Origin: Shigella phage Shfl1
Sequence record: HM035024
Direction: 5' to 3' (one strand)
DNA length: 50,661 nucleotides
Shown: positions 1,905 through 50,504 of the stretch, in pieces
How the letters are laid out: each line of letters begins with the position of its first letter
How positions within the stretch are numbered: position 1 is the stretch's first letter
Notes under the pieces: model-generated
Database searches by the model: none
Seen by the model: the letters and a program-made list of their open reading frames with translations, nothing else
Told to the model about the DNA's origin: nothing
Program-made: the position numbers and the translations under genes

Positions 1905-1957
1905 CCGGAGCCTCGGAACCCCAGGTTAAAAATGATGTACCAATCAGAGGAATCACC

Positions 1958-2188
1958 ATGTCAATCGTCAAGAACCAGCAAGCCATCGATTCAACCAATA
2001 ACAACCGCTTTGCCATTTTCATCACGTCTATAGGTCGACGCTTTGCAGTCAAGGCCGTACCGGGCGGGTACAAAACATACATGGAAGATAACGGAAAGTG
2101 GGTGTGGTGCGAAAACCTTGCAAACTTCCTGGTATGGAACGCAGACCTCCAGGGCTTTGACGATATCAGCACTTTAATTGAGGAATAA
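1958..2188 (+). CDS. hypothetical protein (76 aa)
   Basis: ORF preceded by conserved leader ACCAATCAGAGGAAT. Confidence 0.5.
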   Translation: MSIVKNQQAIDSTNNNRFAIFITSIGRRFAVKAVPGGYKTYMEDNGKWVWCENLANFLVWNADLQGFDDISTLIEE

Positions 2189-2194
2189 ATAATC

Positions 2195-2422
2195 ATGCCA
2201 CATTACAGCAGCCTAACCAAACTGACCCGAGTCAACGGGCACATGATCCCGGCAAAATCCACTCACTACGCAATGGGCGCAAAACACGGAGTCTATTTCA
2301 AGTGGCGCGGTCAATGGAACTTCACGGCTGTGAACAATTTCTATATGCGCGTTCCTGGCGATGACCCGCAATCGGTAGTAGAGAACTCAATCGGCGACAA
2401 CAAGATCGAGGTGCTGAAATGA
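2195..2422 (+). CDS. hypothetical protein (75 aa)
   Basis: ORF with GAGGAA RBS 10 nt upstream. Confidence 0.5.
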   Translation: MPHYSSLTKLTRVNGHMIPAKSTHYAMGAKHGVYFKWRGQWNFTAVNNFYMRVPGDDPQSVVENSIGDNKIEVLK

Positions 2423-2529
2423 ACTTCAATACAATTGCATTATGGTCTGCCGTCTGGTTCTTCTGCATGGGTCACGCCATTGTTAGGATCGTAATCATGT
2501 TACTACTGTGTGCCGGAGCGTTCGAATGA
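2419..2529 (+). CDS. putative 36-aa hydrophobic peptide (MNFNTIALWSAVWFFCMGHAIVRIVIMLLLCAGAFE)
   Basis: ATGA start/stop overlaps at both ends link it to flanking genes; not in the ORF track (below 60 aa); hand translated. Confidence 0.25.
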   Translation: MNFNTIALWSAVWFFCMGHAIVRIVIMLLLCAGAFE

Positions 2530-2699
2530 TGCGCATTCTGATTTGCATGATGGCGGCAGTCGCCATAACTATCCTGGCTGTATCCGGTTGTGTGGAGGTA
2601 AAAGAGCGATGCCACGAAACCGGGAACCAGGTTACTACGTTCGTGATGGTCGGCAACGTATTGCTACCAATCACATCAAATGAGATCACTTGCGAATAG
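2526..2699 (+). CDS. small putative lipoprotein (57 aa precursor)
   Basis: N-terminal hydrophobic signal followed by lipobox-like LAVSGC; GGAG 10 nt upstream of internal ATG at 2526 (track ORF 2508..2699 trimmed). Confidence 0.45.
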   Translation: MMRILICMMAAVAITILAVSGCVEVKERCHETGNQVTTFVMVGNVLLPITSNEITCE

Positions 2700-2708
2700 G
2701 ATTTAACA

Positions 2709-2900
2709 ATGTCTGATTTTATGCACCAAATGATTGCAGTATTCAAAGGCAGTGATGATGAGGAGGTTAAAGAGTGCTTTAACGTTGACAAGTCTTATAA
2801 CGCGTCACTAACCAGCTTTGGTAATATCTCATTGCTTGATGATAATGGCGATCCCTGGATATTCGACGAAGACACTGATTGCTTCGAGATTAAAGAATAG
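2709..2900 (+). CDS. hypothetical acidic protein (63 aa)
   Basis: ORF with AGGA RBS; Asp/Glu-rich. Confidence 0.45.
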   Translation: MSDFMHQMIAVFKGSDDEEVKECFNVDKSYNASLTSFGNISLLDDNGDPWIFDEDTDCFEIKE

Positions 2901-2916
2901 CACTTTTTGTTAAAAC
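2897..2916 (+). promoter_or_regulatory. conserved motif ATAGCACTTTTTGTTAAAAC with TATAGT 18 nt downstream
   Basis: TATAGT 2935-2940 inside inverted repeat GGGGTT/AACCCC. Confidence 0.5.
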
Positions 2917-2970
2917 TCAATATCGGGGTTGCGATATAGTAACCCCATCAACAACGAACGAGGATTTATC

Positions 2971-3177
2971 ATGAAACTGCGGTGCATTGAATCAAATCAA
3001 ATTAACTACTCAGAAGGCTTCGAATATGTCGCTCAAATCGATAGCTTTACAAACAAAAACGGAGAGGTTATTGATGTGGTTCATGGAGTGTATACGTGGT
3101 TCTACTTTGACAAGAAAGCGCTAACAGCAACTAAGCGCAATGGTGATGTGGTGGCTAAATTTAAACGTGAACAATGA
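2971..3177 (+). CDS. hypothetical protein (68 aa)
   Basis: Start trimmed to ATG at 2971, preceded by CGAGGA RBS and conserved CATCAACAACGAA leader. Confidence 0.5.
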   Translation: MKLRCIESNQINYSEGFEYVAQIDSFTNKNGEVIDVVHGVYTWFYFDKKALTATKRNGDVVAKFKREQ

Positions 3178-3187
3178 GGACGATAGC

Positions 3188-3676
3188 ATGAAAATTAAAT
3201 TACTGAGCAATGGCGGTTACAAAGGCTTTACTCGCGATCTGGAAGCTGACCCTATCGTGGTTGACGCGGTGAAGCGTGATGATAGCTTGGGCGGCTACCG
3301 CGTTAAGGTTGACGACCTGGTTAAAGCTGGAGTGTACGATCTTGACTATGGGCTTTCGGTTAGCCCTGTATTTGGTCCGGCTGACTTCAACGAGAAAGAC
3401 GGAACGATGTTCTTCTTCGAATGGGAAGTCCTGGCAAATCCTAGACCGCGCAAGGTTCGACTTCTCAACAATGGCGGCTACCCGATGCGACCAGGTTATG
3501 AGAACCGCACGTTCCCGGTTATCGTGGACTTTACCGAAATCACTAACAACTTGGTCTACGTCAGCAATGAGCATCTCCAGGCTGTAGGATTCACTGGCGG
3601 TATGCATAAAGAGAGTTTGTGCTTCGTTCGCGAAGAAATGCCCGGTTACTATTCTGAGTGCGAGTTGGTTTACTAA
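3188..3676 (+). CDS. hypothetical protein with internal duplication (162 aa)
   Basis: Start trimmed to ATG 3188 (GAGGA RBS); two NGGY-containing repeats (LLSNGGYKGF / LLNNGGYPMR). Confidence 0.6.
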   Translation: MKIKLLSNGGYKGFTRDLEADPIVVDAVKRDDSLGGYRVKVDDLVKAGVYDLDYGLSVSPVFGPADFNEKDGTMFFFEWEVLANPRPRKVRLLNNGGYPMRPGYENRTFPVIVDFTEITNNLVYVSNEHLQAVGFTGGMHKESLCFVREEMPGYYSECELVY

Positions 3677-3693
3677 GCACGAATTGTTAAAAG
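3674..3693 (+). promoter_or_regulatory. conserved motif variant TAAGCACGAATTGTTAAAAG with TATAAT 18 nt downstream
   Basis: TGgTATAAT 3712-3717 inside inverted repeat GGGGATT/AATCCCC. Confidence 0.5.
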
Positions 3694-3747
3694 GGGATTC
3701 TGCCTGATTGGTATAATCCCCACATCAACCACTAAGAGGAAATCGAT

Positions 3748-4233
3748 ATGTTGAAATTAAACGAGATTAAATTCCCTGTAGTTTTTAACACTATTAGCTG
3801 CGGAAAAATAACCTGCCATAACAAAGATCGTGCAACAGATTCGTCATTCAATGAGTGTCATCCGTCTATTGTTGGCAATCTCATTGAACTTCATAACAAT
3901 CACAACCCCGATAACATCCCATCTCTTCCATATTATGTTGAGTATGCTGGTCCTGGTTGGAAGGCTGGTCGAGCAATCTTTCACTCGTCAAAGCCAGAAA
4001 TCAAGCTATCGCTACAGCGCACTCAGATCGAGAACATGCCATTGAGCGCAACGCTAAAAGGTATCCAGCTTGATAGCGAATCCTGGCTTGAAATCACCGC
4101 TACACCGAAAACTATTGAGGTACACGATGATGTGGTGATTCTCCTGTTGCATTACGGCGGCTTTAAGCACAAGACTGTATCAGGTGAAATAAGCATTAAG
4201 CGCGGAACGCTTGTACGCTACGAGGTGAAATAA
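3748..4233 (+). CDS. hypothetical protein (161 aa)
   Basis: ORF preceded by motif, TATAAT and AAGAGGAAA RBS. Confidence 0.6.
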   Translation: MLKLNEIKFPVVFNTISCGKITCHNKDRATDSSFNECHPSIVGNLIELHNNHNPDNIPSLPYYVEYAGPGWKAGRAIFHSSKPEIKLSLQRTQIENMPLSATLKGIQLDSESWLEITATPKTIEVHDDVVILLLHYGGFKHKTVSGEISIKRGTLVRYEVK

Positions 4234-4296
4234 TGAGCAACTGGTATAACGAACATGTAATGCAGTTTTACCGCAATCGCATCAAGAAAATTTTGA

Positions 4297-4316
4297 ACAG
4301 CACGAATTGCTAAACC
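4297..4316 (+). promoter_or_regulatory. conserved motif variant ACAGCACGAATTGCTAAACC with TATAGT 18 nt downstream
   Basis: TGaTATAGT 4335-4340 inside inverted repeat AAGGCCA/TGGCCTT. Confidence 0.5.
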
Positions 4317-4380
4317 TTCCGCAAGGCCATTTGATATAGTGGCCTTATTGAAGCACGGCAACCAATCAGAGGAATTAGCT

Positions 4381-5534: not shown

Positions 5535-5641
5535 GGAGAAAACACTATGCCAGACTTTTCTAACTGGAATAACGAGCCGCCATCATTTCAGGAGTTGCTA
5601 TTTTGCCTCCTGATCCTAACATTATCTCTTAAGGGTGTTTT

Positions 5642-5860
5642 ATGGCTACTATCATGACAGCAGAAGATGCAGCACACGATGCAGTGGAAGGGATGCGCCC
5701 AAATAGCTCCAGAATCGCCCACTACTACAAATCTGATGTGTCGGCAGTGCAATTGGTCCATGAAATTTTAAGGCTCCCACAAGTCGATTCAGCGCGCGTG
5801 GTGACGTGCTTAAAAAATTATTTTTGCATCACTATTAAAACGAATAGCACGAATTGCTAA
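5642..5860 (+). CDS. hypothetical protein (72 aa), doubtful
   Basis: ORF only; its 3' end runs through the conserved promoter motif at 5844. Confidence 0.25.
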   Translation: MATIMTAEDAAHDAVEGMRPNSSRIAHYYKSDVSAVQLVHEILRLPQVDSARVVTCLKNYFCITIKTNSTNC

Positions 5861-5863
5861 AAC
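5844..5863 (+). promoter_or_regulatory. conserved motif ATAGCACGAATTGCTAAAAC with TATGAT 18 nt downstream
   Basis: TATGAT 5882-5887 inside inverted repeat AGGGGAAT/ATTCCCCT. Confidence 0.5.
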
Positions 5864-5917
5864 CTATCAAGGGGAATGCGCTATGATTCCCCTACACCAA
5901 CAAACGAGGAATCACCA

Positions 5918-6364: not shown

Positions 6365-6383
6365 TAGCACGAATTGCTAAAAC
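6364..6383 (+). promoter_or_regulatory. conserved motif ATAGCACGAATTGCTAAAAC with TAGAAT 18 nt downstream
   Basis: TGtTAGAAT 6402-6407 inside inverted repeat AAGGGCATT/AATGCCCTT. Confidence 0.5.
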
Positions 6384-6446
6384 TTGCTCAAGGGCATTTG
6401 TTAGAATGCCCTTCGTTGAGTTAAGCAACCAATCAGAGGAATCAAT

Positions 6447-7291: not shown

Positions 7292-7864
7292 ATGAAAACA
7301 GCTATCATTTTAAACGGCGCACCTGGATCTGGAAAAGACACTATCGGATGTATCCTGGCTGACACTTACGATCACGTAGCCTTGCGCAGCTTCAAAGCGC
7401 CAATGTTTGAGATTGCCCGGGCAATCCTGGGTGAAGCTAACTACGAGTATTTCATGTTCTTATATGAGGACCGTCGATATAAAGAAGAGCCAGCATCAAT
7501 CCTGAACGGTAAAAGCCCACGCCAGTTTATGATCTGGATTAGCGAGGAAGTCATCAAGCCGCAGTTCGGAAATCGCTTCTTCGGTATGCGAGCGGAAAGC
7601 AAAGTGAAAGAGTCGCACTCCCTTTCGGTATTTACTGACGGTGGATTCAAAGACGAAATCTTGCAGATGATTGAAGGTGATATCCAGGTCAAGCTATGTC
7701 GAATACATCGCAACGGCTGCAACTTCGATAATGACAGTCGAGACTATATCTACCTGGATGATATGATCGGTGTCAACGGTTATCAAGAATGTGACTTCTT
7801 CTCTGTCGAAGGTCATCCAGAAATTACCGCTCATCACATAGCCGCCACATTCATCAATAAATAG
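7292..7864 (+). CDS. P-loop nucleotide kinase (dNMP-kinase-like or polynucleotide-kinase-like)
   Basis: N-terminal Walker A ILNGAPGSGKDT, as in T4 gp1 dNMP kinase and Pnk kinase domains. Confidence 0.55.
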   Translation: MKTAIILNGAPGSGKDTIGCILADTYDHVALRSFKAPMFEIARAILGEANYEYFMFLYEDRRYKEEPASILNGKSPRQFMIWISEEVIKPQFGNRFFGMRAESKVKESHSLSVFTDGGFKDEILQMIEGDIQVKLCRIHRNGCNFDNDSRDYIYLDDMIGVNGYQECDFFSVEGHPEITAHHIAATFINK

Positions 7865-7880
7865 CACGAATTGCTAAAGC
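7861..7880 (+). promoter_or_regulatory. conserved motif ATAGCACGAATTGCTAAAGC with TATAGT 18 nt downstream
   Basis: TGaTATAGT 7899-7904. Confidence 0.5.
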
Positions 7881-7936
7881 GTCGATGGGGTGATTTGATA
7901 TAGTTACCTCATCGACAACGAATAGAGAAAATCGAA

Positions 7937-9691: not shown

Positions 9692-9710
9692 ATAGCACTA
9701 AATGTTAAAC
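9692..9710 (+). promoter_or_regulatory. conserved motif variant ATAGCACTAAATGTTAAAC upstream of small terminase
   Basis: Motif directly followed by GAGAGGA RBS region; no hairpin. Confidence 0.35.
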
Positions 9711-16429: not shown

Positions 16430-16447
16430 TTTAACAAAAAGTGCTAT
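16430..16447 (-). promoter_or_regulatory. conserved motif, reverse orientation, adjacent to terminator
   Basis: Plus strand reads TTTAACAAAAAGTGCTAT. Confidence 0.3.
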
Positions 16448-20194: not shown

Positions 20195-20213
20195 TTTTAA
20201 CAAAAAGTGCTAT
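20195..20213 (-). promoter_or_regulatory. conserved motif, reverse orientation, upstream of tail assembly chaperone
   Basis: Plus strand reads TTTTAACAAAAAGTGCTAT, directly followed by CAACCAATCAGGAGAAC leader. Confidence 0.3.
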
Positions 20214-20233
20214 CAACCAATCAGGAGAACATC

Positions 20234-24997: not shown

Positions 24998-25728
24998 TTA
25001 GTGCAAAAATTAAACTTGAAATTATGACTCACGCTCATGAAGAATACCCCCGAGAATGCTGCGGGGTAGTCACCCAAAAGGGCCGCGTGCAAAAATACCA
25101 TCGCGTTGATAATGTACACCGCGATCCTGAAAATCACTTCATGATGGACGCAGTGCAATACGCATGTATTGAGGACGATGCGGAATCAACTACGATCGCA
25201 ATTGTTCACAGCCACACCGGAGACGGGGCTACAACTCTTCCAAGCGCTCACGATACGTGCATGTGTAATGAGATGGAAGTGACATGGATTATTGTTAGCG
25301 TACCGGAAGGAGATATGCGATTTGTGAAGCCTGAGAAATTACCTCTGATTGGTCGTCCGTGGTCGTTAGGCTCATTTGACTGTTACGGTCTTGTTATGGC
25401 TTGGCACAAAGAGCACGGCGTAGAATTGCGCGATCGAAGGTTGAATTTTGAATGGTGGAAACCTGAGTACGGAATTAATCTCTATCAGGACTATTACAGG
25501 CAAGATGGATTTGTTGAAATTCCAGATCAGAATAATCCTTCATTTGGTGATATGGTAATCATGCAAATAGGGCAAAATGTTCCGGTGTGGAACCATGCGG
25601 GGATTTACCTGGGTGATAATCAGATCTTGCATCACGCATTCGGAAAGCTATCGCGTCGTGATATTTATTCTGGCTGGTATCAGGATCACACAGTTTTAAT
25701 TGTTCGCCATAAGGATCTTAAATTATGA
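24994..25728 (+). CDS. tail assembly protein (lambda gpK-like, JAMM/MPN plus NlpC/P60)
   Basis: JAMM-type motif HSHTGDGATTLPSAHD; C-terminal NlpC/P60-like segment with Cys (FDCYGL) and His; ATGA overlap with previous gene. Confidence 0.65.
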   Translation: MISAKIKLEIMTHAHEEYPRECCGVVTQKGRVQKYHRVDNVHRDPENHFMMDAVQYACIEDDAESTTIAIVHSHTGDGATTLPSAHDTCMCNEMEVTWIIVSVPEGDMRFVKPEKLPLIGRPWSLGSFDCYGLVMAWHKEHGVELRDRRLNFEWWKPEYGINLYQDYYRQDGFVEIPDQNNPSFGDMVIMQIGQNVPVWNHAGIYLGDNQILHHAFGKLSRRDIYSGWYQDHTVLIVRHKDLKL

Positions 25729-29400: not shown

Positions 29401-29851
29401 CGGCGTCAAATTGGGTCTTAAATACAACGGGCAGGAATACAGCGCAGGCATGGCTATGTCTCTGATTGGTTCCGGCGCTGCGGTTAAGGCTCAGATTTTA
29501 TTTGAGGCATCACGATTTGCCATCATGACTGGAATGAATGGTCAGACGCAGTACCCATTCGTTGTTGAGAATGGCCAGGTTATTCTAAGTAGCGCGATCA
29601 TCAAGGATGGATTTATTACTAACGCCATGATTGGTAACGCGATTCAGTCTAACAATTGGGATGGAAATCAAGGGTGGCATATTAACAAGAATGGCGCAGC
29701 TTACTTCATGAACGCAACCGTAAGAGGTGCTTTGTATGCAAATAACGGAGCCTTTGCATTCAACGGGACAAACAATACGGTTCAGATAAACAATAACGGG
29801 ATCACGGTTAACCTACCTAACGGTGGACGAGTGGTTGTTGGTGTATGGTAA
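26402..29851 (+). CDS. central tail fibre / host specificity protein (lambda gpJ-like)
   Basis: 1149 aa; last large gene of tail cluster; fibronectin-III-like segments; Gly/Asn-rich C-terminal region. Confidence 0.8.
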   Translation: MIQKVISGSKGGSPKPHKPVEMEDNLISINKIKILLAVSDGEIDETFSLKQLMFNSVPVQNEDGSFNFEGVKAEFRPGTQTQEYIKGMEDSSSEVTVNREVTTDNPYTISVTNKTLSAIRIKMFMPRGVRIESNGDKNGVRVEYEVQQAVDGGSFETVLTDVIEGKTMSGYDRSRRVNLPNFNNQVIFRVVRKTPDSKDSNVVDAIQVKSYAEVIDAKFRYPLTGLLFVEFDSKMFPNQLPTISIRKRWKIVNVPSNYDPESRTYNGNWDGTFKKAWTNNPAWVLYDLMINQRYGLDQKELGISVDKWALYEAAQYCDQMVPDGKGGTEPRYLCDVIIQSQTDAYKVIRDICSIFRGMSFWNGESISVIIDRPREPAYIFTNDNVVNGDFSYTFASEKSMYTTCNVMFDDEQNMYQQDVEPVFDREATLRFGNNVTSITAIGCTRRSEANRRGRWILKTNLRSTTVNFATGLEGMIPTIGDVVAIADNFWSSNLTMNLSGRLLEVSGSQIFLPFRVDARAGDFIIVNKPDGNPVKRTISSVSADGKTIEVNIGFGFPVKPNTVFAIDRTDIALQQYVVTKIDKGDDDEEFTYKITAVEYDPNKYDEIDYGVNIDDRPTSIVEPDQIPKPENVQVSSESRIVQGMSVETMIVSWDKVPYAVFYDVQWRKDNGNWQNVPQTANKEVYVEGIYAGNYQVRVRSVAGSGTTSGWSNIVAATLTGKQGEPGRPINLTATDDVVFGIRTKWGFSDGSGDTAYTELQQSPDGTVDNASLLSLIPYPQHEYYHSPMPGGNIVWYRVRTVDRIGNVSQWTDFVRGMASTNVDDIIGEISVDIENSPGYEWLVDNATDNAAQNAANAEAAIENALANDKDAIYMKKENGKRKAEYTKSLKLIADETQARVTSIEQLKASFDDQISASNSELREVIATETGALSREIDQLKAEIGDDIQASLTDIREAIANETEARTQADLSLSARLGNNEAALSQKLDSWSNADSTGAMYGVKLGLKYNGQEYSAGMAMSLIGSGAAVKAQILFEASRFAIMTGMNGQTQYPFVVENGQVILSSAIIKDGFITNAMIGNAIQSNNWDGNQGWHINKNGAAYFMNATVRGALYANNGAFAFNGTNNTVQINNNGITVNLPNGGRVVVGVW

Positions 29852-32658: not shown

Positions 32659-32732
32659 ACGGCACAAATAGCTAAACAAATAATTAATGAGGTGTTATAA
32701 TGCACCTCATACACCAATCAGGAGAAGTTAAG

Positions 32733-35673: not shown

Positions 35674-35715
35674 ATAGCACGAATTGCTAAACAATGATTT
35701 TATCATTGTGCTATC
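35674..35715. promoter_or_regulatory. inverted pair of motif copies between tail fibre start and primase stop
   Basis: ATAGCACGAATTGCTAAAC followed by AATGATTTTATCATTGTGCTAT. Confidence 0.35.
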
Positions 35716-35756: not shown

Positions 35757-36689
35757 GAGTAGGTCACTCGCTGAGAATAACTTGGCTTGCATCCCTGAGC
35801 GGTATCCTCCATGATTTGGGATGATTATTTTTAATTGTCGGTCGTCTGCCATGTATAAAGTCTCCTTGTCTGAAGGTTCGCACGCAACCCTTACTTCTCG
35901 ATCCCCTTTATATCTGTATGCAACCATTTCCAGATTCTCAGGAGTGAAGCAGGCCCATACCTCTTGCTTTGTGTGAAATGCAATATGCTGAGCATCAATC
36001 CAATTAAGGCATAAGTAGATCGCTTTTTCTGTTTTACCAGTCACGGCAACCGAACAACTCGTATATTTCTTAGCGTAAAACGATTCCCTTCCTTCTTCAT
36101 CAATAATCAAAATATTGCAAAACTCGTCATCAAGACCGTCCTCGTGTACAAGTTGACACGGGATAGTGTGAAATACGCTCTCCCTGCCATCATCGCGACG
36201 TTTTACGCCAACGTCGAATGATTCAGTTGGTAGAGATTCAAACATGCTTAGAGGTGTGTTTACGCGCTTCTCTGTGCGCTCCATTACTTTCATCACTTCT
36301 TCATGATCTGCCATCATCACATTGACACCAGACACCGGAGTCCTGCGTGCTTTCTTGTTTGCCTTGACGATGTATTCCTGAGGGACTTTTCCGAGAAATC
36401 TTCCCAGGATGTTTATGCAATCGCTATACGGCATACCAGTTAACTTCATCAACCAACCGATCCCGGAGTCGTTACCGCATGAGTTGCAGATCGCACCGCC
36501 GTCTCCTGGAGTGTTCAGATTATCAGTCCAGCGAAAGCGGTCTTTACCTCCGCAGTTAGGGCAAGGTTGGTGCTTCTTGTTGAAAACCTCGTTAGGTAAT
36601 CCGCATACGGACTGGAACGCCTCGCGCCATAACCCATTCATATACGGCAATACGTCCTCTTTCTGAAACATCATAAATTCTTCGTTCAC
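35754..36689 (-). CDS. DNA primase (zinc-ribbon plus Toprim-like)
   Basis: N-terminal CPNCGGKDRFRW...GGAICNSCG matches the primase-helicase zinc-binding domain; GTG start with GGAG RBS. Confidence 0.6.
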   Translation of the reverse strand: MNEEFMMFQKEDVLPYMNGLWREAFQSVCGLPNEVFNKKHQPCPNCGGKDRFRWTDNLNTPGDGGAICNSCGNDSGIGWLMKLTGMPYSDCINILGRFLGKVPQEYIVKANKKARRTPVSGVNVMMADHEEVMKVMERTEKRVNTPLSMFESLPTESFDVGVKRRDDGRESVFHTIPCQLVHEDGLDDEFCNILIIDEEGRESFYAKKYTSCSVAVTGKTEKAIYLCLNWIDAQHIAFHTKQEVWACFTPENLEMVAYRYKGDREVRVACEPSDKETLYMADDRQLKIIIPNHGGYRSGMQAKLFSASDLL

Positions 36690-36746: not shown

Positions 36747-36766
36747 GTTTTAACTAAAAATGCTAT
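36747..36766 (-). promoter_or_regulatory. conserved motif (minus orientation) overlapping 3' end of HTH regulator gene
   Basis: Reverse complement reads ATAGCATTTTTAGTTAAAAC. Confidence 0.4.
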
Positions 36767-37202
36767 TGGTCGTCCCGATATCTTCCTTCTTCACCACTCG
36801 CATAAACTTCTTGTTCTTGCATCGCTTCTCTAGGCACTTGCCGTTACCGTCAAACTTGAGGTCGAATCGCAACCATGCGGCGCGGAATCCTTTACAACCC
36901 TGACGACGGTAAGCACGATGTGCAGCTTCAGCACCTTGCCACGAAATCATGTTGCGCTCCTTCCATCCCTGCACGGTCTGATTGCTAACTTTCAGAGCCT
37001 TTGCGCAGGCCGCAGGGCCGCCATAATATTCGATAAGAGCATCAAGTCTCGCTCTCAGTCCGGCGCGTGTTTCTTCTTTATGGATATAGAAACCGCAGCG
37101 TTGGCGTGGCTTTTTATCTTTACCGCGTCTCGTTCCGTTGTTACCATTGATGTGACGTTTATCGATTTCACCAGTTGACTCTGCGATGCGTTGCATATTC
37201 AT
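36750..37202 (-). CDS. putative HTH DNA-binding regulator (Cro/YdaS-like)
   Basis: GGPAACAKALKVSNQTVQGWKERNMISWQ resembles Cro/YdaS-type helix-turn-helix; basic N-terminus; start trimmed to ATG 37202 (AGGAG RBS). Confidence 0.4.
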   Translation of the reverse strand: MNMQRIAESTGEIDKRHINGNNGTRRGKDKKPRQRCGFYIHKEETRAGLRARLDALIEYYGGPAACAKALKVSNQTVQGWKERNMISWQGAEAAHRAYRRQGCKGFRAAWLRFDLKFDGNGKCLEKRCKNKKFMRVVKKEDIGTTNSIFS

Positions 37203-37214: not shown

Positions 37215-37235
37215 GTAGCACTTTTTGCTAAAAAC
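37215..37235 (+). promoter_or_regulatory. conserved motif GTAGCACTTTTTGCTAAAAAC upstream of helicase, divergent from HTH regulator gene
   Basis: TATTAT about 18 nt downstream (37253-37258). Confidence 0.45.
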
Positions 37236-37296: not shown

Positions 37297-39315
37297 GTGA
37301 CAATTAACATCAAGAAGCAAATCGCATTACTTGGCGAGGACTATATAAAACGCACTCAAGAACGATTCACTGTCGGTGAGGTCGTTCCTTATCCGTATCA
37401 GGTTGTTGCTTATGCCGAGATCGCAAAACGCCTGTCAAATTACGAGCATCCATTCTTTGTTAAAGCGTCAGTATCTGCGGGTAAAACAATCATATTCGCT
37501 ATGGTGGCAAAGCAGTGTCAAAAAATGGGCCTGAAAATGCTTGTGCTTGCCCGACAGGGTGAGATCGTCGATCAGGATAGTGAGGAGATCGACAACTTCG
37601 GGGTAACGAACTCCATCTTCTCAGCATCGCTTGGAATCAAGTCCTGCTACTTCCCGATCGTGGTTGGCTCTGAGGGTACGGTTGCAAATGGCCTCGACAA
37701 TGAGTTGGCTGATTTTGTCCCGCATGTAATTGGGATCGACGAATGTCACCAGGTGGATTGGGAAGACCTTGCTCAAGCCATCGAAGGAAAAGAAACGATG
37801 GAGCAGATGAGGGGCGAGAAAGGGAAAATTATTATGGACGGGGAGATTCCTCTGATTGGTAATGACGGGAAACCTTTACTTGGAACTAAGCGAAGCCAGT
37901 ATACGATCGTAATCATGGAGATGATGCGTCGCTGTAAAGAGATTCACGGGCATGACCTCAGAATATTTGGCATGACAGGATCTGAATTTAGGGGCGTTGT
38001 TCCGATTCTGGTGGAGAATCCAAAGGCGTTAGGATTCTGGCGTGAGCGCGTAACTGATATCGACACAAACTATCTGATTGAGTTTGGCTCTGTTGTGCCG
38101 ACGATATTCGGTTCGACTGACGGAGTACACTACGATCTGGATAAGTTCAAGGCATCAAGCGAGGACGGCGTACAGGACTTTGCAGAGAAAGATATGAAGG
38201 CAATGGAAGATGAGATCCTTCATGATAAATCTCTTACTCAGCGAATCATGCAAATGGTCGCCAAAAAGGCTGAAGAACGTAACGCGGTTCTGATTACATG
38301 CGCGGGTGTGCGTCACTGTAAAGAGGCGGCGGCGGCACTGCCTCCAGGAAGCACCTATGCAATAATCACTGGCGACACAGACACCAAAACGCGCAAGAAG
38401 ATTCTGGACGATGTAAGGGCCGGGAAGATTAAATACACCTTTCAGGTAATGGCTCTCACTACTGGCGTTAACGTTCCAAATTGGGATTTCAGTGTCATAC
38501 TCCGCAAGATAGGATCTCTCACTCTGTTGATTCAGCTTTTGGGTAGGGGTATGCGGCTGCTTAAATCATGGCAGGTTGCTGAAGGAATGGTTAAGCAAGA
38601 CCATCTGGTATGGGATTTCGCTGGCACTATGGATGAGTTGGGCCAACTTTATTTCGATCCGATACTTGAGCAGGCGCAATTCCAGAAGCGTTTTGAAAAC
38701 GGCAAAGACCCGAAAACGTGTCCTAAGTGTGGTTGCGTTAATAGCTTCTACGCTCGCCGATGCGTTAACGTTATAGACGGTGAGAGATGCGATCACTTCT
38801 GGACTTCTCAGATTTGCGAGGACCAGGTTGATGAGCGAACCGGGAAAATTCTTGTTAAAGGATGTGGTGCCGAGAATGACGTTGTCGCCCGAGTTTGTCG
38901 TTGCTGTGATGTGTCACTTGTCGATCCTAACCTGAAATTGTCCGGCAAGGCGTACACCAAGAATGACTGGTATGAGGTCAAGAATTTTGAGGTAACGCTA
39001 ACCAAAAACCAAAAGGGCGTGATATACAAATACACGCTGATTAACGATGATGGTGATGAGTTCAAGGCGTATGAAAAATTCTTCCCCGAGTCCGACTCTA
39101 AGATTTGCGGTACGCTATGGAAAACTAAGGGTGTATTGCCTCATGTGTCAGATCCTAAAATGCGTCGCTACTTTATCGGAATGAAGAACGCAATCAAGAT
39201 CGTGCAGTACTCACATCATATTGCTCATCCGGTACGAGTCACACACCGACGCAACCAGAAGAAGGAAGATATTATTTCACGTAAAGATTTCGGTATGGAG
39301 GATATCCCGCAATGA
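37297..39315 (+). CDS. SF2 helicase (DEAD/DEAH-box-like) with C-terminal zinc-finger region
   Basis: Walker A SVSAGKT; DExH box GIDECHQ; C-terminal Cys clusters CPKCGC...CDHFW and CRCC; GTG start. Confidence 0.7.
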   Translation: MTINIKKQIALLGEDYIKRTQERFTVGEVVPYPYQVVAYAEIAKRLSNYEHPFFVKASVSAGKTIIFAMVAKQCQKMGLKMLVLARQGEIVDQDSEEIDNFGVTNSIFSASLGIKSCYFPIVVGSEGTVANGLDNELADFVPHVIGIDECHQVDWEDLAQAIEGKETMEQMRGEKGKIIMDGEIPLIGNDGKPLLGTKRSQYTIVIMEMMRRCKEIHGHDLRIFGMTGSEFRGVVPILVENPKALGFWRERVTDIDTNYLIEFGSVVPTIFGSTDGVHYDLDKFKASSEDGVQDFAEKDMKAMEDEILHDKSLTQRIMQMVAKKAEERNAVLITCAGVRHCKEAAAALPPGSTYAIITGDTDTKTRKKILDDVRAGKIKYTFQVMALTTGVNVPNWDFSVILRKIGSLTLLIQLLGRGMRLLKSWQVAEGMVKQDHLVWDFAGTMDELGQLYFDPILEQAQFQKRFENGKDPKTCPKCGCVNSFYARRCVNVIDGERCDHFWTSQICEDQVDERTGKILVKGCGAENDVVARVCRCCDVSLVDPNLKLSGKAYTKNDWYEVKNFEVTLTKNQKGVIYKYTLINDDGDEFKAYEKFFPESDSKICGTLWKTKGVLPHVSDPKMRRYFIGMKNAIKIVQYSHHIAHPVRVTHRRNQKKEDIISRKDFGMEDIPQ

Positions 39316-39728
39316 TTACAGACAAAGGAGATTACTTAGAGTTTTACGAGCGAGATCCCAGCGACACTCGAAAGGAGGACGCGCACCAGGTAGATTGCGT
39401 GTCCTGGCTGAAATACAATTTCCCACACCTTCTATTTTGGCACACTGTCAATGAAGGTGAAAAAACAATCACTTCAGCACTCAGGGATGAGCAGGCTGGA
39501 TTACTTAAAGGCGTGTCAGACTTCGTTATCCTGATTGGTGTAAACTCACGCCACCCGTTCGCAGCTATCGAACTCAAACGGGTTAATAAGTCCGGCAAAG
39601 GAAAGGCATCACCAGTCAGCGATAAGCAAAAGGAATTTCTCCGTAAGGTTCGCGAACGCGGTGGATTCTCTGCGGTGGCTTACGGATTTGAGCAATTCAA
39701 GATCGCAATTTACGAAATGATGAAATAG
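39312..39728 (+). CDS. VRR-NUC domain nuclease
   Basis: PD-(D/E)XK-type core VSDFVILIG ... AAIELKRVNKSG ... SDKQKEFL typical of VRR-NUC. Confidence 0.55.
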   Translation: MITDKGDYLEFYERDPSDTRKEDAHQVDCVSWLKYNFPHLLFWHTVNEGEKTITSALRDEQAGLLKGVSDFVILIGVNSRHPFAAIELKRVNKSGKGKASPVSDKQKEFLRKVRERGGFSAVAYGFEQFKIAIYEMMK

Positions 39729-39744
39729 CACTTTTTGTTAAAAC
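39725..39744 (+). promoter_or_regulatory. conserved motif ATAGCACTTTTTGTTAAAAC upstream of Dam methylase
   Basis: TGgCATTAT 18 nt downstream (39763-39768). Confidence 0.45.
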
Positions 39745-39795
39745 TGCCGGAATGGAATCTGGCATTATTATTTCACCAAAACGAGAGGACTAAAA

Positions 39796-40509: not shown

Positions 40510-40757
40510 TGAACGAGAAAATGATTCAGGTTAAGTTAACTGATCAAGGTTTATGGCTGCTTTATCGAGCTACGTGCTGCGAAATTATGGAGCGAAACGG
40601 ATTGACTCAGGATGTTATTGGTTGCGATCTGTGGGAGTTCACTAGTTCTCTTGATATGTCTTTCGATGAGATAAAAAATGAATATATCGAGAATTGGCCT
40701 TCAATTATCCAGAAGGACGTAGATGAACTTAAAGCAGATACGATCGTACAGCACTAA
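40506..40757 (+). CDS. hypothetical protein (83 aa)
   Basis: ATGA overlap with Dam stop; start trimmed to 40506. Confidence 0.45.
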   Translation: MMNEKMIQVKLTDQGLWLLYRATCCEIMERNGLTQDVIGCDLWEFTSSLDMSFDEIKNEYIENWPSIIQKDVDELKADTIVQH

Positions 40758-40767
40758 TTGCTAAAAA
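40748..40767 (+). promoter_or_regulatory. conserved motif variant ACAGCACTAATTGCTAAAAA with TATAGT 18 nt downstream
   Basis: TATAGT 40786-40791 after inverted repeat CCCGGCGAAAGTCGGG. Confidence 0.45.
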
Positions 40768-40823
40768 TACCCGGCGAAAGTCGGGTATAGTTATTTCATC
40801 GATACGAAATGAGGAATCAAAAG

Positions 40824-41593: not shown

Positions 41594-42745
41594 ATGTCAC
41601 AAGCTAAAATCACCACCGAGCAACTTATTGAAGAGCGCATGAGCGGCCTAACACTTCGCGAAATCGCGGAAAAATACGGTATGCACATTCGCACTGTTGA
41701 AGCGCGCCATGCCAAGCTGGCAAAAGAAGGTCATTTTCACGGTAACGAGCATGTTGCTAAAAACGTGCCCGAGGGATTCATGGTAAAAGGCACGTCGACG
41801 ATGATTCGCGGCGATGGGACCGAGGTAGTGCGCTGGGTAAAAACCGATCAGGACCGTGAGAAGATTGCGGCAATGATGGAGGCGGCGCGCATTGCATTCT
41901 GTGAAGACCTGCCGCGAGCAAAGCCAACCGAGCTACTAACCTCGCAAGGGATTACGACAGCGATGGGTAAGCTGGCACTCTATCCGGTATTCGACCTGCA
42001 CATTGGTGCGCTTGCTCACAAGCATGAATGCGGAGAGAACTACTCTACCGACGTAGCCGAAAAAGTGCTTGTCGACTTCTTCAATTACGCGATCGATATT
42101 GCCCCGAACGCAGAGAAAGCTGTTCTGTTAATCGGCGGTGACTTCCTTCACTCGGACGGCCTTGATGCTGTTACCCCGGCAAGCGGTCACGTTCTGGATC
42201 AGGATTCACGATACGCAAAATTGGTGCATGTTGCGATCCGTTCGGTGCGTCGCGCTATCGACAAAATGCTTATGAAACACAAAGAAGTCGAGGTTCAGAT
42301 TATTGAAGGGAACCACGACCAGGCCGGGATGATTTGGCTACGTGCTGCAATGTCGGCATATTATGAAGACGAGCCGCGAGTATTCGTTGACGTTAGCCCT
42401 ATGATTCTGCATAAGACTCGATGGGGAAACACCTTATTGGGATACACTCACGGGCACACTATGAAAAAGGCAGACACGCGACTTGCAGCGATGGCGGCAG
42501 ACTTCCGTGCAGACTTCGGAGAGAGCAAGTATGTGTATACTCATAGCGGTCACTGGCATCATCAGACAATCACTGAACACTCGTTAGGTATCGATGAGGT
42601 TCACGGTCAGTTAGGAGCGAAGGATGCATACGCCGCGCGCGGCGGGTGGCGCTCATATCGTCAGGCGGCGGTAATCGTTTACGATAAACAGTTTGGGGAA
42701 ATCGGTCGGTTCATCTATCGTCCAGAAATGACAGGATCGCACTAA
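41594..42745 (+). CDS. calcineurin-like metallophosphoesterase with N-terminal HTH-like segment
   Basis: Metallophosphatase motifs FDLHIG (DxH), GGDFLHSDG (GD...), EGNHDQ (GNHD/E), HSGHWHH; N-terminal LTLREIAEKYGMHIRTVEARHAKL. Confidence 0.55.
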   Translation: MSQAKITTEQLIEERMSGLTLREIAEKYGMHIRTVEARHAKLAKEGHFHGNEHVAKNVPEGFMVKGTSTMIRGDGTEVVRWVKTDQDREKIAAMMEAARIAFCEDLPRAKPTELLTSQGITTAMGKLALYPVFDLHIGALAHKHECGENYSTDVAEKVLVDFFNYAIDIAPNAEKAVLLIGGDFLHSDGLDAVTPASGHVLDQDSRYAKLVHVAIRSVRRAIDKMLMKHKEVEVQIIEGNHDQAGMIWLRAAMSAYYEDEPRVFVDVSPMILHKTRWGNTLLGYTHGHTMKKADTRLAAMAADFRADFGESKYVYTHSGHWHHQTITEHSLGIDEVHGQLGAKDAYAARGGWRSYRQAAVIVYDKQFGEIGRFIYRPEMTGSH

Positions 42746-42756
42746 TTGATAAAAAC
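42737..42756 (+). promoter_or_regulatory. conserved motif variant TCGCACTAATTGATAAAAAC with TATAGT 17 nt downstream
   Basis: TATAGT 42774-42779 after inverted repeat CCCGAAGGGATTCGGG. Confidence 0.4.
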
Positions 42757-42810
42757 GCCCGAAGGGATTCGGGTATAGTAACCACATCAAAAACAAAGAG
42801 GCTACATATC

Positions 42811-46806: not shown

Positions 46807-46868
46807 TGCGTTAACTCCTGATTGGTTATCTTGAATAAGGTCACTTTATCAAATGACCTTACGGCAAT

Positions 46869-46886
46869 ATTAACAAATCGTGCTAT
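46869..46886 (-). promoter_or_regulatory. conserved motif (minus orientation)
   Basis: Reverse complement ATAGCACGATTTGTTAAT; followed by inverted repeat AAGGTCA/TGACCTT. Confidence 0.45.
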
Positions 46887-47096: not shown

Positions 47097-47099
47097 TAA

Positions 47100-47324: not shown

Positions 47325-47383
47325 TTTTAATTCCTTTGTTTCGTTTGGTGTGGGAGTAATATACCTTACTCCCTATTTATTGT

Positions 47384-47402
47384 CTTTAGCAATTAGTGCT
47401 AT
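47384..47402 (-). promoter_or_regulatory. conserved motif (minus orientation)
   Basis: Reverse complement ATAGCACTAATTGCTAAAG; followed by inverted repeat GGGAGTAA/TTACTCCC with TATATT. Confidence 0.45.
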
Positions 47403-47878: not shown

Positions 47879-48079
47879 TCAGGATAGCTTTCTCGCTTCA
47901 TCAATGATAACAGGTTCGAGACGCTCAAGTCGAACGCGGAACGTGTTCATAAATCCTTCGTTATTCTTCAGTAGCTCGAATGCGTCTGTTGCCTCAATTG
48001 CGCTATTTCCCATGTAGGCAACTACTCTCTTTTGCGTCTTGCGTGAGATCGCAACCACGCGGTAGATATTATCACTCAT
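47879..48079 (-). CDS. hypothetical protein (66 aa)
   Basis: Start trimmed to ATG 48079 (AAGGAGG RBS 7 nt upstream). Confidence 0.45.
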   Translation of the reverse strand: MSDNIYRVVAISRKTQKRVVAYMGNSAIEATDAFELLKNNEGFMNTFRVRLERLEPVIIDEARKLS

Positions 48080-48443: not shown

Positions 48444-48500
48444 AATTATTTCCTCGTTTACTGTTGATGGGATGACTATACCATCCACCCCATTTATGCG

Positions 48501-48518
48501 TTTAACAAAAAGTGCTAT
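48501..48518 (-). promoter_or_regulatory. conserved motif (minus orientation)
   Basis: Reverse complement ATAGCACTTTTTGTTAAA; TATAGT (plus 48475-48480) within inverted repeat GGATGG/CCATCC. Confidence 0.45.
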
Positions 48519-48679
48519 TCTATAACTTCCTTTTGAACGACCTTGATCTCATCAAAGAAGATATTCCTGTCATTCTCAGTGAGATTCTTGATCTCGTTAG
48601 CTTTGCTCTCGGTTGAGCATATCTCGATCAGTTCGTCACCTTCATAATAGATGGTCCCAACAACGCAATATACGATCAT
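48515..48679 (-). CDS. small hypothetical protein (54 aa)
   Basis: Hand translated; ATGA overlap with upstream gene; GGAGG RBS; 3' end overlaps promoter motif. Confidence 0.35.
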   Translation of the reverse strand: MIVYCVVGTIYYEGDELIEICSTESKANEIKNLTENDRNIFFDEIKVVQKEVIE

Positions 48680-49056
48680 AATTTTTCCTCCAGCACTTCA
48701 CGGATGCGGTTTATTGCGTCCAGCTTATCGCAATCCCAACGAGTCGTTCCGTTATCCGGTCGCTCTTCGAACGCGAGACTCACCTCTTCGAGAAGGTTGT
48801 CAATGATAGCCTCCTTCTCGTCACCGCCCAGCTTTCCGAACTCAACCGATCCTACGTAACGATTGATATAAGCAATCATGCTCTGATGTTCTTCAATGGT
48901 GAATATATCCGTGATACTGATCCCGGTATCTCGCTGAGTGATAACAACCCGGTTGCTGGGGTGGATTATCCCGCCCACCAGGCGATTGCAAATCTCAACT
49001 GTGAAACCTTTCTCATTTGCGCGGTCAATTGCTTCCTGAAGTTTTGAATCTGTCAT
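48676..49056 (-). CDS. hypothetical protein (126 aa)
   Basis: ORF preceded by conserved leader CAACCAATCAGAGGAAT. Confidence 0.5.
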   Translation of the reverse strand: MTDSKLQEAIDRANEKGFTVEICNRLVGGIIHPSNRVVITQRDTGISITDIFTIEEHQSMIAYINRYVGSVEFGKLGGDEKEAIIDNLLEEVSLAFEERPDNGTTRWDCDKLDAINRIREVLEEKL

Positions 49057-49123
49057 CTCGTCATTCCTCTGATTGGTTGATGTGTTAAATATACCCCGAT
49101 TACCTTCGGGGCGTTTAGCAATT

Positions 49124-49141
49124 CGTGCTATTAAGCGATAT
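49124..49141 (-). promoter_or_regulatory. conserved motif (minus orientation)
   Basis: Reverse complement ATAGCACGAATTGCTAAA; hairpin CCCCGAAGGTAATCGGGG then TATATT. Confidence 0.45.
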
Positions 49142-49466
49142 CGAACTCAGCGGCATATGCTTTCTTGAAGCCAGCTTCACGCATGGTGCGCTTGCTGATT
49201 TTGCGAGGGAATTTGTACTGGCTGTTAGGCTTAATCCACCAAAAGCAGGCAGTTTCACGAACGATTTCATATTTACCATAGCGGGTGAAGGTGTCACGTT
49301 CAGCGTCCGGCTGATAAATACAGGTCAGGAATTTAGCTGCATTTTCTTCAGTTTTGATTTCTTCCCATACGAAGGAATCCATACCGTTAACTTTGCAAGC
49401 TACCATGATGTACTCAACGCCGTTTTCGATTTTGATGATTTCGTTACCGCGATTTTCGTATTTCAT
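49131..49466 (-). CDS. hypothetical protein (111 aa)
   Basis: ORF downstream of motif. Confidence 0.5.
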   Translation of the reverse strand: MKYENRGNEIIKIENGVEYIMVACKVNGMDSFVWEEIKTEENAAKFLTCIYQPDAERDTFTRYGKYEIVRETACFWWIKPNSQYKFPRKISKRTMREAGFKKAYAAEFDIA

Positions 49467-49529
49467 TTTCCTGCCCCTGATGTGTATCTCGTTTCGATGA
49501 GGTAATTATGCCAAATCACACCGATCGAG

Positions 49530-49548
49530 TTTTAACAAAAAGTGCTAT
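49530..49548 (-). promoter_or_regulatory. conserved motif (minus orientation) overlapping 3' end of methyltransferase-like gene
   Basis: Reverse complement ATAGCACTTTTTGTTAAAA. Confidence 0.4.
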
Positions 49549-50236
49549 TTGCGATTGCTTTGAAAAATCCACGCGGCGACAGCGATCGTATCAACTTCGT
49601 TTTGGCAGACTTGCCGCCCAGCTTGTTATGCTGTGCAGAGTACCCGTCAGGAAGGTTTACAGGTTTTCTCTCCGGCATGACAAAATCGTCCGAGGTCCAA
49701 AGGCACGTCTTTTTCGGGTAAGCATCGCGCGGCGCAATATACATAGGGAACCAGGGATGTGAGTCATTCTCAGGAAGGTAGCCGCCATACTCCCAGGGAT
49801 TGAATGAGTGATCTGGTTTTCTCCAGGCAGATGACAGGACGCTAACCGGATTCTCAATGATGTAGGTCACGCCCAGGGCATCGCCAATATTCGCAGCAAT
49901 CCGTGCGGTTGCAACAGCCTTCTCCTGGAATAACGGATCGCGCTCACGCTTACTTGCAAAGTGCGCGGCACCACTAACAGCCAGGTCGGTGCATGGAGGA
50001 AATGCCATGATGAAATCTGGCTTGCCATACACACCCGCGATCGCATCACGTTCGAACTTCTCATCAATGAAGACGTTCACATACTCAATATTCGGATGCT
50101 CTACCCGGGCGTTGTACTTTGCATAATCTCCGTGATCGGCCCCGTCAAAGTTGAAGCACATTACCTTATGACCTCGCTTAGCCAGTTCATGACCAGCAAG
50201 GCCGGAGCCATCGAATAATGACCAGATTAATTTCAT
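49532..50236 (-). CDS. C5-cytosine-methyltransferase-like protein (short, divergent)
   Basis: Motif-I-like LFDGSGLAG, motif-IV-like FPPCTDLAVSG (Pro-Cys but Thr in place of Gln), motif-VI-like IIENPV; only 234 aa. Confidence 0.4.
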   Translation of the reverse strand: MKLIWSLFDGSGLAGHELAKRGHKVMCFNFDGADHGDYAKYNARVEHPNIEYVNVFIDEKFERDAIAGVYGKPDFIMAFPPCTDLAVSGAAHFASKRERDPLFQEKAVATARIAANIGDALGVTYIIENPVSVLSSAWRKPDHSFNPWEYGGYLPENDSHPWFPMYIAPRDAYPKKTCLWTSDDFVMPERKPVNLPDGYSAQHNKLGGKSAKTKLIRSLSPRGFFKAIANSTFC

Positions 50237-50445
50237 TTCGTTACCTCCTTGAATACCGTTTTTCCGTCATTGGTCAGGAATCGATCCCACCCATTCATTG
50301 AACGGAAAACGCCGATTTGATTTTGATGATTGTCAGTCGCAAAGTAACCGCCATCAATAAGGTAGATCTCATATACTGATTGATTCGTGAAGCTGTCGGT
50401 GCTGACGCTAATGCATCGCACAGCACATTCAAATTCTGGTTCCAT
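50233..50445 (-). CDS. hypothetical protein (70 aa)
   Basis: ORF preceded by conserved leader CAACCAATCAGAGGAAT. Confidence 0.45.
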   Translation of the reverse strand: MEPEFECAVRCISVSTDSFTNQSVYEIYLIDGGYFATDNHQNQIGVFRSMNGWDRFLTNDGKTVFKEVTK

Positions 50446-50504
50446 TGCATGATTCCTCTGATTGGTTGATGTGATGAATCATACCCTGCCAACATGGATA
50501 AGTC

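Follow-up and report, generated by a model that had tools for sequence, protein, structure and literature searches.

The window analyzed here, the 50,661-nucleotide (nt) sequence record HM035024 of Shigella phage Shfl1, is the complete genome of a T1-like siphovirus (Drexlerviridae, Tunavirus). Its first 8 kb and last 20 kb are 88 to 96% identical to Tunavirus phages (Shigella phages phi2457T, Sfin-1, and phiL and Escherichia phage SA30RD), and its gene order is that of phage T1, with small early genes on both arms pointing inwards and structural genes in the center. About 20 genes or short operons carry one cassette of about 85 bp, and nearly all of the repeated leaders that an original prediction had picked out from the letters of this genome are the downstream end of that cassette. 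In order, the cassette comprises a 21-nt direct repeat (DR), ATAGCACnnnTTGnTAAAA, of the form ATAGCAC-nnn-TTGnTAAAA; a 22-bp spacer; an extended -10 with G at -14 and the hexamer TATAGT or TATAAT; a C(-1)A(+1) start 7 nt downstream of the hexamer; and an A/C-rich 5' untranslated region (5'UTR) of 24 to 26 nt. The leaders fall into class A, ACCAATCAGAGGAAT, the core of which is a separate 9-nt box (ACCAAUCAG or ACCAATCAG) located just upstream of the Shine-Dalgarno (SD) sequence, and class B, CATCAACAACGAAYGAGGAA. The cassettes and leaders of the window are as follows, with each +1 given as predicted and the A-box leaders being those of class A.

1001..1074, plus strand: class B cassette with DR 1001-1017, -10 TATAGT 1038-1043, +1 1050, leader CATCAACAACGAATGAGGAAACGAAG, and start codon 1075.
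1737..1957, plus strand: cassette with a long (172-nt) 5'UTR; DR 1737-1753, -10 1774-1779, +1 1786, a tandem 70-nt element 1799-1921, A-box leader ACCAATCAGAGGAAT 1939-1953, and start codon 1958.
2898..2970, plus strand: class B cassette with DR 2898-2914, -10 2935-2940, +1 2947, leader CATCAACAACGAACGAGGATTTATC, and start codon 2971.
3675..3747, plus strand: degenerate A-box cassette with DR 3675-3691, -10 TATAAT 3712-3717, +1 3724, ACCACTAAGAGGAAA 3728-3742, and start codon 3748.
4298..4380, plus strand: long class A cassette with DR 4298-4314, -10 4335-4340, +1 4347, A-box leader 4361-4375, and start codon 4381.
5845..5917, plus strand: class B-like cassette with DR 5845-5861, -10 TATGAT 5882-5887, +1 5894, leader ACACCAACAAACGAGGAATCACCA, and start codon 5918.
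6365..6446, plus strand: long class A cassette with DR 6365-6381, -10 TAGAAT 6402-6407, +1 6414, A-box leader 6428-6442, and start codon 6447.
7862..7936, plus strand: class B cassette with DR 7862-7878, -10 7899-7904, +1 7911, leader CATCGACAACGAATAGAGAAAATCGAA, and start codon 7937.
20196..20233, plus strand: A-box ribosome site of the tail-assembly-chaperone gene, with ACCAATCAGGAGAAC 20216-20230, start codon 20234, and an inverted DR 20196-20212 directly before.
32660..32732, plus strand: degenerate-DR cassette of the erf gene, with GCACAAATAGCTAAA 32662-32676, -10 TATAAT 32696-32701, A-box ACCAATCAGGAGAAG 32713-32727, and start codon 32733.
39726..39795, plus strand: dam methylase cassette with DR 39726-39742, -10 TATTAT, short leader CAAAACGAGAGGACTAAAA, and start codon 39796.
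40749..40823, plus strand: class B cassette with DR 40749-40765, -10 40786-40791, +1 40798, leader CATCGATACGAAATGAGGAATCAAAAG, and start codon 40824.
42737..42810, plus strand: class B-like cassette with DR-like GCACTAATTGATAAA 42739-42753, -10 TATAGT 42774-42779, +1 about 42786, leader ATCAAAAACAAAGAGGCTACATATC, and start codon 42811.
46807..46885, minus strand: long class A cassette with DR 46885-46869, -10 TAAAGT from 46848, +1 46836, A-box ACCAATCAGGAGTTA 46828-46814, and start codon 46806.
47325..47401, minus strand: class B-like cassette with DR 47401-47385, -10 TATATT from 47363, +1 47351, leader CACACCAAACGAAACAAAGGAATTAAAA, and start codon 47324.
48444..48517, minus strand: class B cassette with DR 48517-48501, -10 TATAGT from 48480, +1 48468, leader CATCAACAGTAAACGAGGAAATAATT, and start codon 48443.
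49057..49130, minus strand: short class A cassette with DR 49130-49114, -10 TATATT from 49093, +1 49081, A-box leader 49077-49063, and start codon 49056.
49467..49547, minus strand: class B-like cassette with DR 49547-49531, -10 CATAAT from 49510, +1 49498, leader CATCGAAACGAGATACACATCAGGGGCAGGAAA, and start codon 49466.
50446..50521, minus strand: short class A cassette with DR 50521-50505, -10 TATGAT from 50483, +1 50471, A-box leader 50466-50452, and start codon 50445.

Class A is present in six exact copies, at 1939-1953, 4361-4375, and 6428-6442 on the plus strand and at 49063-49077, 50452-50466, and 37846-37860 on the minus strand; at up to two mismatches there are eight matches, compared with 0.15 expected from shuffled sequences. 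Five of the six exact copies lie 4 to 7 nt 5' of a start codon, as do three CAGGAG variants (20216-20230 and 32713-32727 on the plus strand and 46814-46828 on the minus strand), which bears out, with shifts of 0 to 3 nt, the earlier claim that this leader precedes eight start codons. A ninth, looser copy lies at 3728-3742 on the plus strand. The sixth exact copy, which the original prediction did not list, does not serve as a leader: it is antisense to codons I-P-L-I-G of a helicase open reading frame (ORF) and has no start codon after it, and T1 and Sfin-1 differ there at one site each, synonymously in T1 and by a change of Ile to Val in Sfin-1. Near-copies at 25339-25353, 29456-29470, and 13500 are also antisense to L-I-G codons in preferred codon usage, such near-copies lying in tail genes, and the copy at 37846-37860 is probably a by-product of codon usage. 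Class B at up to three mismatches has three matches (1049-1068 and 2946-2965 on the plus strand and 48450-48469 on the minus strand), with none expected, and the sites at 7910, 40797, and 42780 are looser, with at least four mismatches or 1-nt shifts. The placement of this second family at predicted start sites held throughout, as all of these sites, the looser ones included, begin 7 nt downstream of a -10 hexamer, although only three of the six proved to be close matches to the motif. The proteins encoded downstream of the leaders are mutually unrelated (best E value of 0.064 in an all-against-all blastp comparison of 19 proteins). Because the coding sequences are unrelated, the similarity of the leaders ends at the start codon, and segmental duplication reaching into coding sequence, which had been raised at the outset as a competing source of that similarity, was rejected.

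The geometry of the cassette was examined in 75 loci, consisting of the window, T1, Sfin-1, Rtp, and 71 related left-arm loci collected via the polynucleotide kinase gene (56 to 94% protein identity). These loci contain 689 DR hits, 623 of which have a -10-like hexamer; in 539 of the 623, the hexamer lies at one fixed offset, 22 bp after TTGnTA. In logos built from 427 to 494 non-redundant cassettes, G(-14) reaches 1.3 to 1.6 bits, the A and T of TAtaaT reach 2.0 bits, and A(+1) reaches 1.2 to 1.3 bits; T(-15) is weak, and the sequence downstream of the -10 reads c(-1)A(+1)tcgaaac. The cassette thus has the marks of a sigma-70 extended -10 promoter (TGn, a TATAAT-like hexamer, and a purine start about 7 nt further on) and is predicted to be one. 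A scan for canonical sigma-70 -35/-10 pairs returned 13 sites, compared with 12.5 expected, and no cassette was among them; the TTGnTA of the DR is 22 bp upstream of the -10, whereas a TTGACA-like canonical -35 would be expected at 16 to 18 bp. A sigma-54 reading of the DR (TGGCAC-N5-TTGC) was rejected on inspection, since the spacing falls short by 2 nt and a -10 of the sigma-70 type follows at a fixed distance.

Middle promoters of phage T4 combine an extended -10 with a MotA box (TGCTTtA) that lies 11 to 13 bp from the -10. The TTGCTAAA of the DR resembles the MotA box, and the cassettes likewise do without a canonical -35 and in many cases carry TGn at the -10, but the DR hexamer lies 22 bp away rather than 11 to 13 bp. 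Direct repeats of 21 nt have been reported from intergenic regions of phage TLS and are said to occur also in T1, Rtp, and Rogue1; their consensus, aaATAGCACnnnTTGnTAAAA, runs the same way as transcription and lies about 76 nt upstream of start codons, and their function was listed as an open question (Kropinski, Misra and colleagues 2024, PMC11447400). That repeat forms the upstream part of every cassette here: about 20 copies in the window fit the published consensus, with 49 nt from the start of the DR to the predicted +1 and a 5'UTR of about 25 nt. The TLS paper describes only the 21-nt repeat, whereas the 22-bp spacing to an extended -10, the start-site consensus, and the two leader words come from the present analysis. 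The searched literature yielded no account of the fixed promoter geometry, of the start-site consensus, or of the ACCAAUCAG box, and it did not contain the leader or DR sequences as text. The upstream repeat is already published, and the box, the promoter geometry, and the start-site consensus are new here as far as that literature goes.

The spacer and discriminator vary in sequence, and in 86% of 332 non-redundant cassettes they fold into a hairpin. Pairing is stronger between native arms (-10.8 kcal/mol) than between arms exchanged among cassettes (-7.05 kcal/mol), and the arms covary from cassette to cassette. The hairpin, located between the DR and +1, encloses the -10 or stops just before it, for example at 1018-1049, 3692-3723, and 6382-6413 on the plus strand and at 49113-49082 on the minus strand. 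The T1 and SA30RD records annotate cassette hairpins as (rho-independent) terminators, a role that was rejected because no T-run follows them and a terminator scan does not report them.

Some copies of the DR stand apart from this arrangement. Inverted copies, or copies without a -10, lie directly against the SD of late or regulatory genes (20196-20212, 35675-35691, 37216-37232, 16430-16446, and 9693-9709); the genes concerned include those for the tail chaperone, the tail fiber (start 35653, minus strand), a Cro-like regulator (36750-37202, start 37202, minus strand), and terS. The DR also contains the dyad TAGCA-N5-TGCTA. These features suggest a protein-binding site that would be usable in both orientations, and the copy near the regulator gene is possibly the site of autoregulation by that regulator. 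On the minus strand, the inverted DR before the tail chaperone gene (20212-20163) has a -10-like TACGAT at the standard distance, with the major tail gene's bidirectional terminator hairpin following within about 35 nt. A very short antisense transcript could arise there.

The class B leader CATCAACAACGAA is the Tunavirus form of a 5'UTR consensus anchored to the start site, which reads AUCAACAACGAA in the window and AUCGAAACGAA family-wide. Among 464 non-redundant cassettes, the predicted 5'UTR has a length of 24 to 26 nt with a mode of 25, ends in GAGG or GGAG, and upstream of the SD consists of 50% A, 25% C, 13% G, and 12% U. In an unbiased count of the 8-mers in 463 UTRs, scored by the number of N-terminal peptide families that each word precedes (161 families), the top words were ATCGAAAC (41 families), CGAAACGA (39), and GAAACGAA (37), followed by ACCAATCA (28), CCAATCAG (26), and AACCAATC (25); the best word containing an SD scored 18. 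The class B word keeps its place relative to the -10; it is therefore the first stretch transcribed from the cassette promoter, leading directly into the SD, and the initial view of it as a translational element in its own right was abandoned.

The box of class A is placed by a different landmark. It is present in 74 of the 464 non-redundant cassettes, where its distance to the start codon is mostly 10 to 11 nt, and its offset from +1 ranges from 5 to 19 nt; in the 1737 cassette it lies 153 nt from the predicted +1. The gap between the box and the SD core is 0 to about 5 nt (...CAGGAG, ...CAGAGGA, ...CAAAGGAG, and ...CAGAAGAGGA). Boxes are also found without a promoter, at internal ribosome sites right after stop codons, such as those before terL in 22 Klebsiella-phage-like loci. 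Across the 75 loci the box precedes about 25 to 30 credible unrelated protein families, including pnk, erf, the tail chaperone, and a methyltransferase, and most relatives have several boxes per genome. Since the box is tied to the start codon, occurs at promoter-less sites, and precedes many unrelated families, it is best described as a portable element of the ribosome-binding region.

These positions also bear on the idea that the box acts at the DNA level, as the site at which a transcription regulator would stop promoter escape or elongation shortly after the start site. The phage does encode a Cro-like helix-turn-helix regulator, and in a few promoters of relatives ACCAATCAG lies directly after the DR, at about -32 to -24. 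However, the box keeps its distance to the start codon while its distance to the promoter varies, down to the internal ribosome sites far from promoters and the distant box of the 1737 cassette; the box has no dyad symmetry; and Rtp has the regulator but only one box. A DNA-level role is considered very improbable.

The conservation of the box was assessed in orthologous upstream regions chosen by homology of the downstream protein, with cassettes counted as retained at an upstream identity of at least 60% (139 pairs). In retained cassettes, divergence from the window was 3.2% for the ACCAATCAG box, 6.1% for the DR, 9.0% for the SD, 11% for the -10, 11% for the first 8 transcribed nt, 24% for other UTR positions, and 25.5% for the spacer. 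Computed per gene, the corresponding values were 3.4% for the box, 13.6% for the SD plus spacer, and 22% for the rest. With the start codon excepted, the box is the most conserved element of retained cassettes and diverges less than the SD, in agreement with the claim that conservation of the leader extends past the SD. In erf orthologues, the box is kept at 43 to 44% protein identity, with flanks that are 50% diverged. Without the identity filter, the box disappears along with the whole leader; 21 of 28 orthologues of gene 46806 have neither DR nor box upstream. The pattern is all or none, in that the box is either intact or exchanged together with its leader.

Exchange of this kind can be followed in individual genomes. 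In T1, the promoter of the 50521 cassette of the window is followed by the leader and gene of the 48517 cassette, with the switch exactly in CATCAAC; the roughly 2 kb between these cassettes (50466-48460, minus strand) are absent from T1, where the joint lies at 48750 (L002). The cassette at 6365..6446 precedes a 67-amino-acid ORF in the window and lies directly before pnk in T1. Orthologues of one gene differ between genomes in having a class B leader or the box, and in one relative the 17-nt box leader is fused to the DR in the promoter spacer. Cassettes make up 9% of the sequence and hold 72 of 342 homology-block ends, a 2.3-fold enrichment, and the block ends that adjoin start codons do not favor cassette genes over others. 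Recombination demonstrably uses cassettes as joints, and the homology-block ends did not demonstrate an excess of joints at cassettes over ordinary gene boundaries. Conserved boundary ("linker") sequences reportedly have a place in the modular evolution of phages (Susskind and Botstein). The cassettes are similar in being short repeats at gene boundaries that coincide with recombination joints, but they look like functional expression signals.

Recombination could by itself account for the similarity of the leaders if the box were functionless beyond carrying the SD and its copies were descended from duplicated cassettes that recombination or gene conversion keeps uniform within and between phages, as linkers. 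The joint in CATCAAC, the occurrence of one cassette before different genes and of one gene behind different leaders, the fused 17-nt leader, and the enrichment of block ends would all be expected from such a history, and these phages encode RecE-like and Erf recombination proteins. Conversion tracts would homogenize neighboring positions too, however, and the box diverges by about 3%, compared with 14 to 24% for flanking leader nucleotides. The box also persists before erf across subfamilies and at internal ribosome sites that have no cassette, and block ends near start codons are not concentrated at cassette genes. Descent without function is judged distinctly unlikely. Separately, a variant that weakens the SD, ACCAATCATAGGAAT, is shared by two paralogous Sfin-1 leaders (L003 16370 and 9683) and a TLS-like contig (L168 12051), which hints at exchange or conversion between cassettes.

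An origin of the leader in the host was rejected, as a 19-mer from it occurs only eight times in 185,579 bacterial genomes, in unrelated taxa and at chance level. A 15-mer scan of viral contigs found mostly chance matches outside T1-like phages. The 22-mer CACATCAACCAATCAGAGGAAT is present, apparently in coding sequence, in three viral contigs that fall outside the T1-like phages, with 51% G+C and without repeat cassettes (L032 2177, L086 1447, and L088 6096, all on the minus strand), and is too long for a chance match.

The placement and conservation of the box could also reflect an operator for a trans-acting factor, either a phage or host RNA-binding protein or a small RNA. Such a factor would turn a group of phage transcripts on or off jointly, in the way that T4 RegA controls early mRNAs, or would label phage mRNAs for translation during host shut-off. 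Nine specific bases are kept more strictly than the SD; the box is always sense oriented and adjoins ribosome sites; neither rRNA pairing nor an advantage in accessibility explains it; and most relatives carry several copies per genome. Searches for such a partner speak against this reading. No antisense partner was found in non-coding phage DNA, the only complements being the coding-strand L-I-G codons, and duplex energies with GcvB were no better than those of shuffled sequences for 14 of 16 leaders; with 16S rRNA pairing also at the level of shuffles, the small-RNA regulator of the original prediction found no support. Its alternative, a regulatory protein, fared no better for the one annotated candidate: the single "RNA-binding protein" of the phage (DUF3850/ASCH-like) was rejected as the partner of the box because it is absent from T1, which keeps five boxes, and from 58 of 74 loci that still have boxes. 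The genes with boxes are functionally mixed (small early ORFs, erf, the tail chaperone, and terL in other clades), and variants (ACCAGTCAG) stand beside the canonical box in the same genomes, so that there is no sign of a co-evolving specificity. No repressor candidate for the box was found among nine phage proteins scanned against Pfam, a scan that did not include a systematic search for RegA homologues. An operator of this kind appears rather unlikely.

The reading favored here, held at roughly even confidence, is that the box is a cis-acting, interchangeable module of translation initiation. Host sigma-70 RNA polymerase would start at the A of CATC, and the resulting short, G/U-poor 5'UTR would serve promoter escape and 30S binding. 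On the mRNA and in cis, the ACCAAUCAG box would then act as a portable initiation enhancer just 5' of the SD, with flexible spacing, in the manner of the C/A-rich or ACA enhancers of enteric mRNAs, and would be interchangeable with other leader types. Being repeated about 20 times in the direction of transcription, the cassettes would double as crossover points for the gain, loss, and exchange of gene cassettes. The shared translational enhancer originally proposed for both leaders is retained in this form for the box, whose tie to the start codon and lower divergence than the SD fit an mRNA-level element in translation initiation; it is dropped for class B.

Several observations weigh against the interpretation of the box as a cis-acting enhancer. 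Orthologous genes often have no box, and whole leaders are swapped, so the box is not essential to any one gene; the conservation figures come from related, non-independent sequences that passed the 60% identity filter, without formal rate tests. Pairing of the box with 16S rRNA beyond the SD is not above that of shuffled controls, nor is that of the class B leader; the best pairing is a 7-mer at 1019-1025 of E. coli rrsH (the sole rrn copy tested), equaled by 0.05 to 0.24 of shuffles. The box is also not an extended SD, as a duplex search found no pairing with the 16S 3' end: GAGG or GGAG pairs with CCUCC, and ACCAAUCA lies 5' of the SD, beyond where the 16S 3' end runs out. The predicted unpaired probability from -15 to +3 is no higher for leader genes (0.57) than for other genes of the window (0.54; P = 0.25, a weak comparison with an imperfect class assignment). 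The box contains no ACA motif, and its nine near-invariant bases would exceed what a low-specificity S1 or standby enhancer needs and would be a better fit to a sequence-specific binder. Because neither start-site nor translation measurements for T1-like phages, transcriptomes included, were found in the searched literature, promoter use and enhancer activity are inferred. Rfam 15 gave no match at the gathering score anywhere in the window, and no conserved RNA helix was seen by inspection inside the long leaders.

Known phage and enteric systems provide points of comparison for a cis-acting box. The operators of T4 RegA overlap the start codon and are loose and AU rich. They resemble the box in being one short RNA motif common to the initiation regions of many unrelated phage mRNAs, but the box lies 10 to 11 nt upstream of the start codon and is nearly invariant. 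The epsilon sequence of the T7 gene 10 leader is reportedly an enhancer complementary to an internal segment of 16S rRNA (Olins and Rangwala, 1989). It too is a phage leader element upstream of the SD with conservation beyond the SD; epsilon is defined by internal 16S complementarity, whereas the box pairs with 16S rRNA no better than shuffled sequences do. The closest experimentally established elements are the C/A-rich and ACA translational enhancers found immediately upstream of the SD in Salmonella and E. coli mRNAs (yifK and dppA; PMC3879156), which share with the box a short specific element, an A/C-rich stretch 5' of the SD, loose spacing, and an enterobacterial setting. The box ACCAAUCAG differs from them in having no ACA, and its pairing with GcvB, their natural antagonist, is not above that of shuffles; its own role as an enhancer is deduced from sequence. 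ACA is present in the class B leaders of the window (CAACAAC) and absent from both the box and the family-wide AUCGAAACGAA.

Other features of the leaders concern individual sites. The 172-nt 5'UTR between the 1737 promoter and the 1939 leader is filled by two tandem copies of a stem-loop-forming element (1799-1921; 53 nt aligned, 70-nt period, 79% identical). The insertion is missing from T1 and confined to eight phage records, which come from three Drexlerviridae genera and mostly have it in intergenic DNA without annotation; it has no Rfam match and a fold z-score of -1.4. A third stereotyped leader, mainly of late genes, consists of a G+C-rich terminator hairpin, then TTTTTTATTGGAGAAAT, then the start codon (starts at 5547, 11912, 15610, 16502, and 17512 on the plus strand and at 36689 on the minus strand). 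The exact reverse complement of the box, CTGATTGGT, occurs at 3704-3712 and in the relatives L163 (9661), L168 (4902, minus strand), and L190. In one cassette family, which has the degenerate box ACCACTAAG as its leader, it lies just 5' of the -10 and overlaps it (CTGATTGGTATAAT); its recurrence may just mirror the consensus ..tGATTtGgTATAAT upstream of the -10.

T1-like phages are frequent laboratory and industrial contaminants and candidates for therapy, and their gene expression signals are essentially unmapped. The fixed distance between the DR and an extended -10 with a consensus start makes the DR testable as a promoter element in place of a -35. The cassette can also aid in placing start codons when Drexlerviridae genomes are annotated and may serve as a compact promoter-plus-5'UTR part for engineering. 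The box and the other leader word are short, precisely defined targets for mutagenesis, and mutating the box could uncover a translational enhancer of a new, sequence-specific kind for Enterobacteria, or else a control step specific to the phage. The strict conservation of the nine bases of the box argues for a sequence-specific binder. It seems quite improbable that ACCAAUCAG is the site of such a factor (a phage protein or a modified host ribosome component) defining a translational regulon across the Drexlerviridae; if it were, phage mRNAs would be prioritized during host shut-off, or a set of genes would be shut off later in infection.

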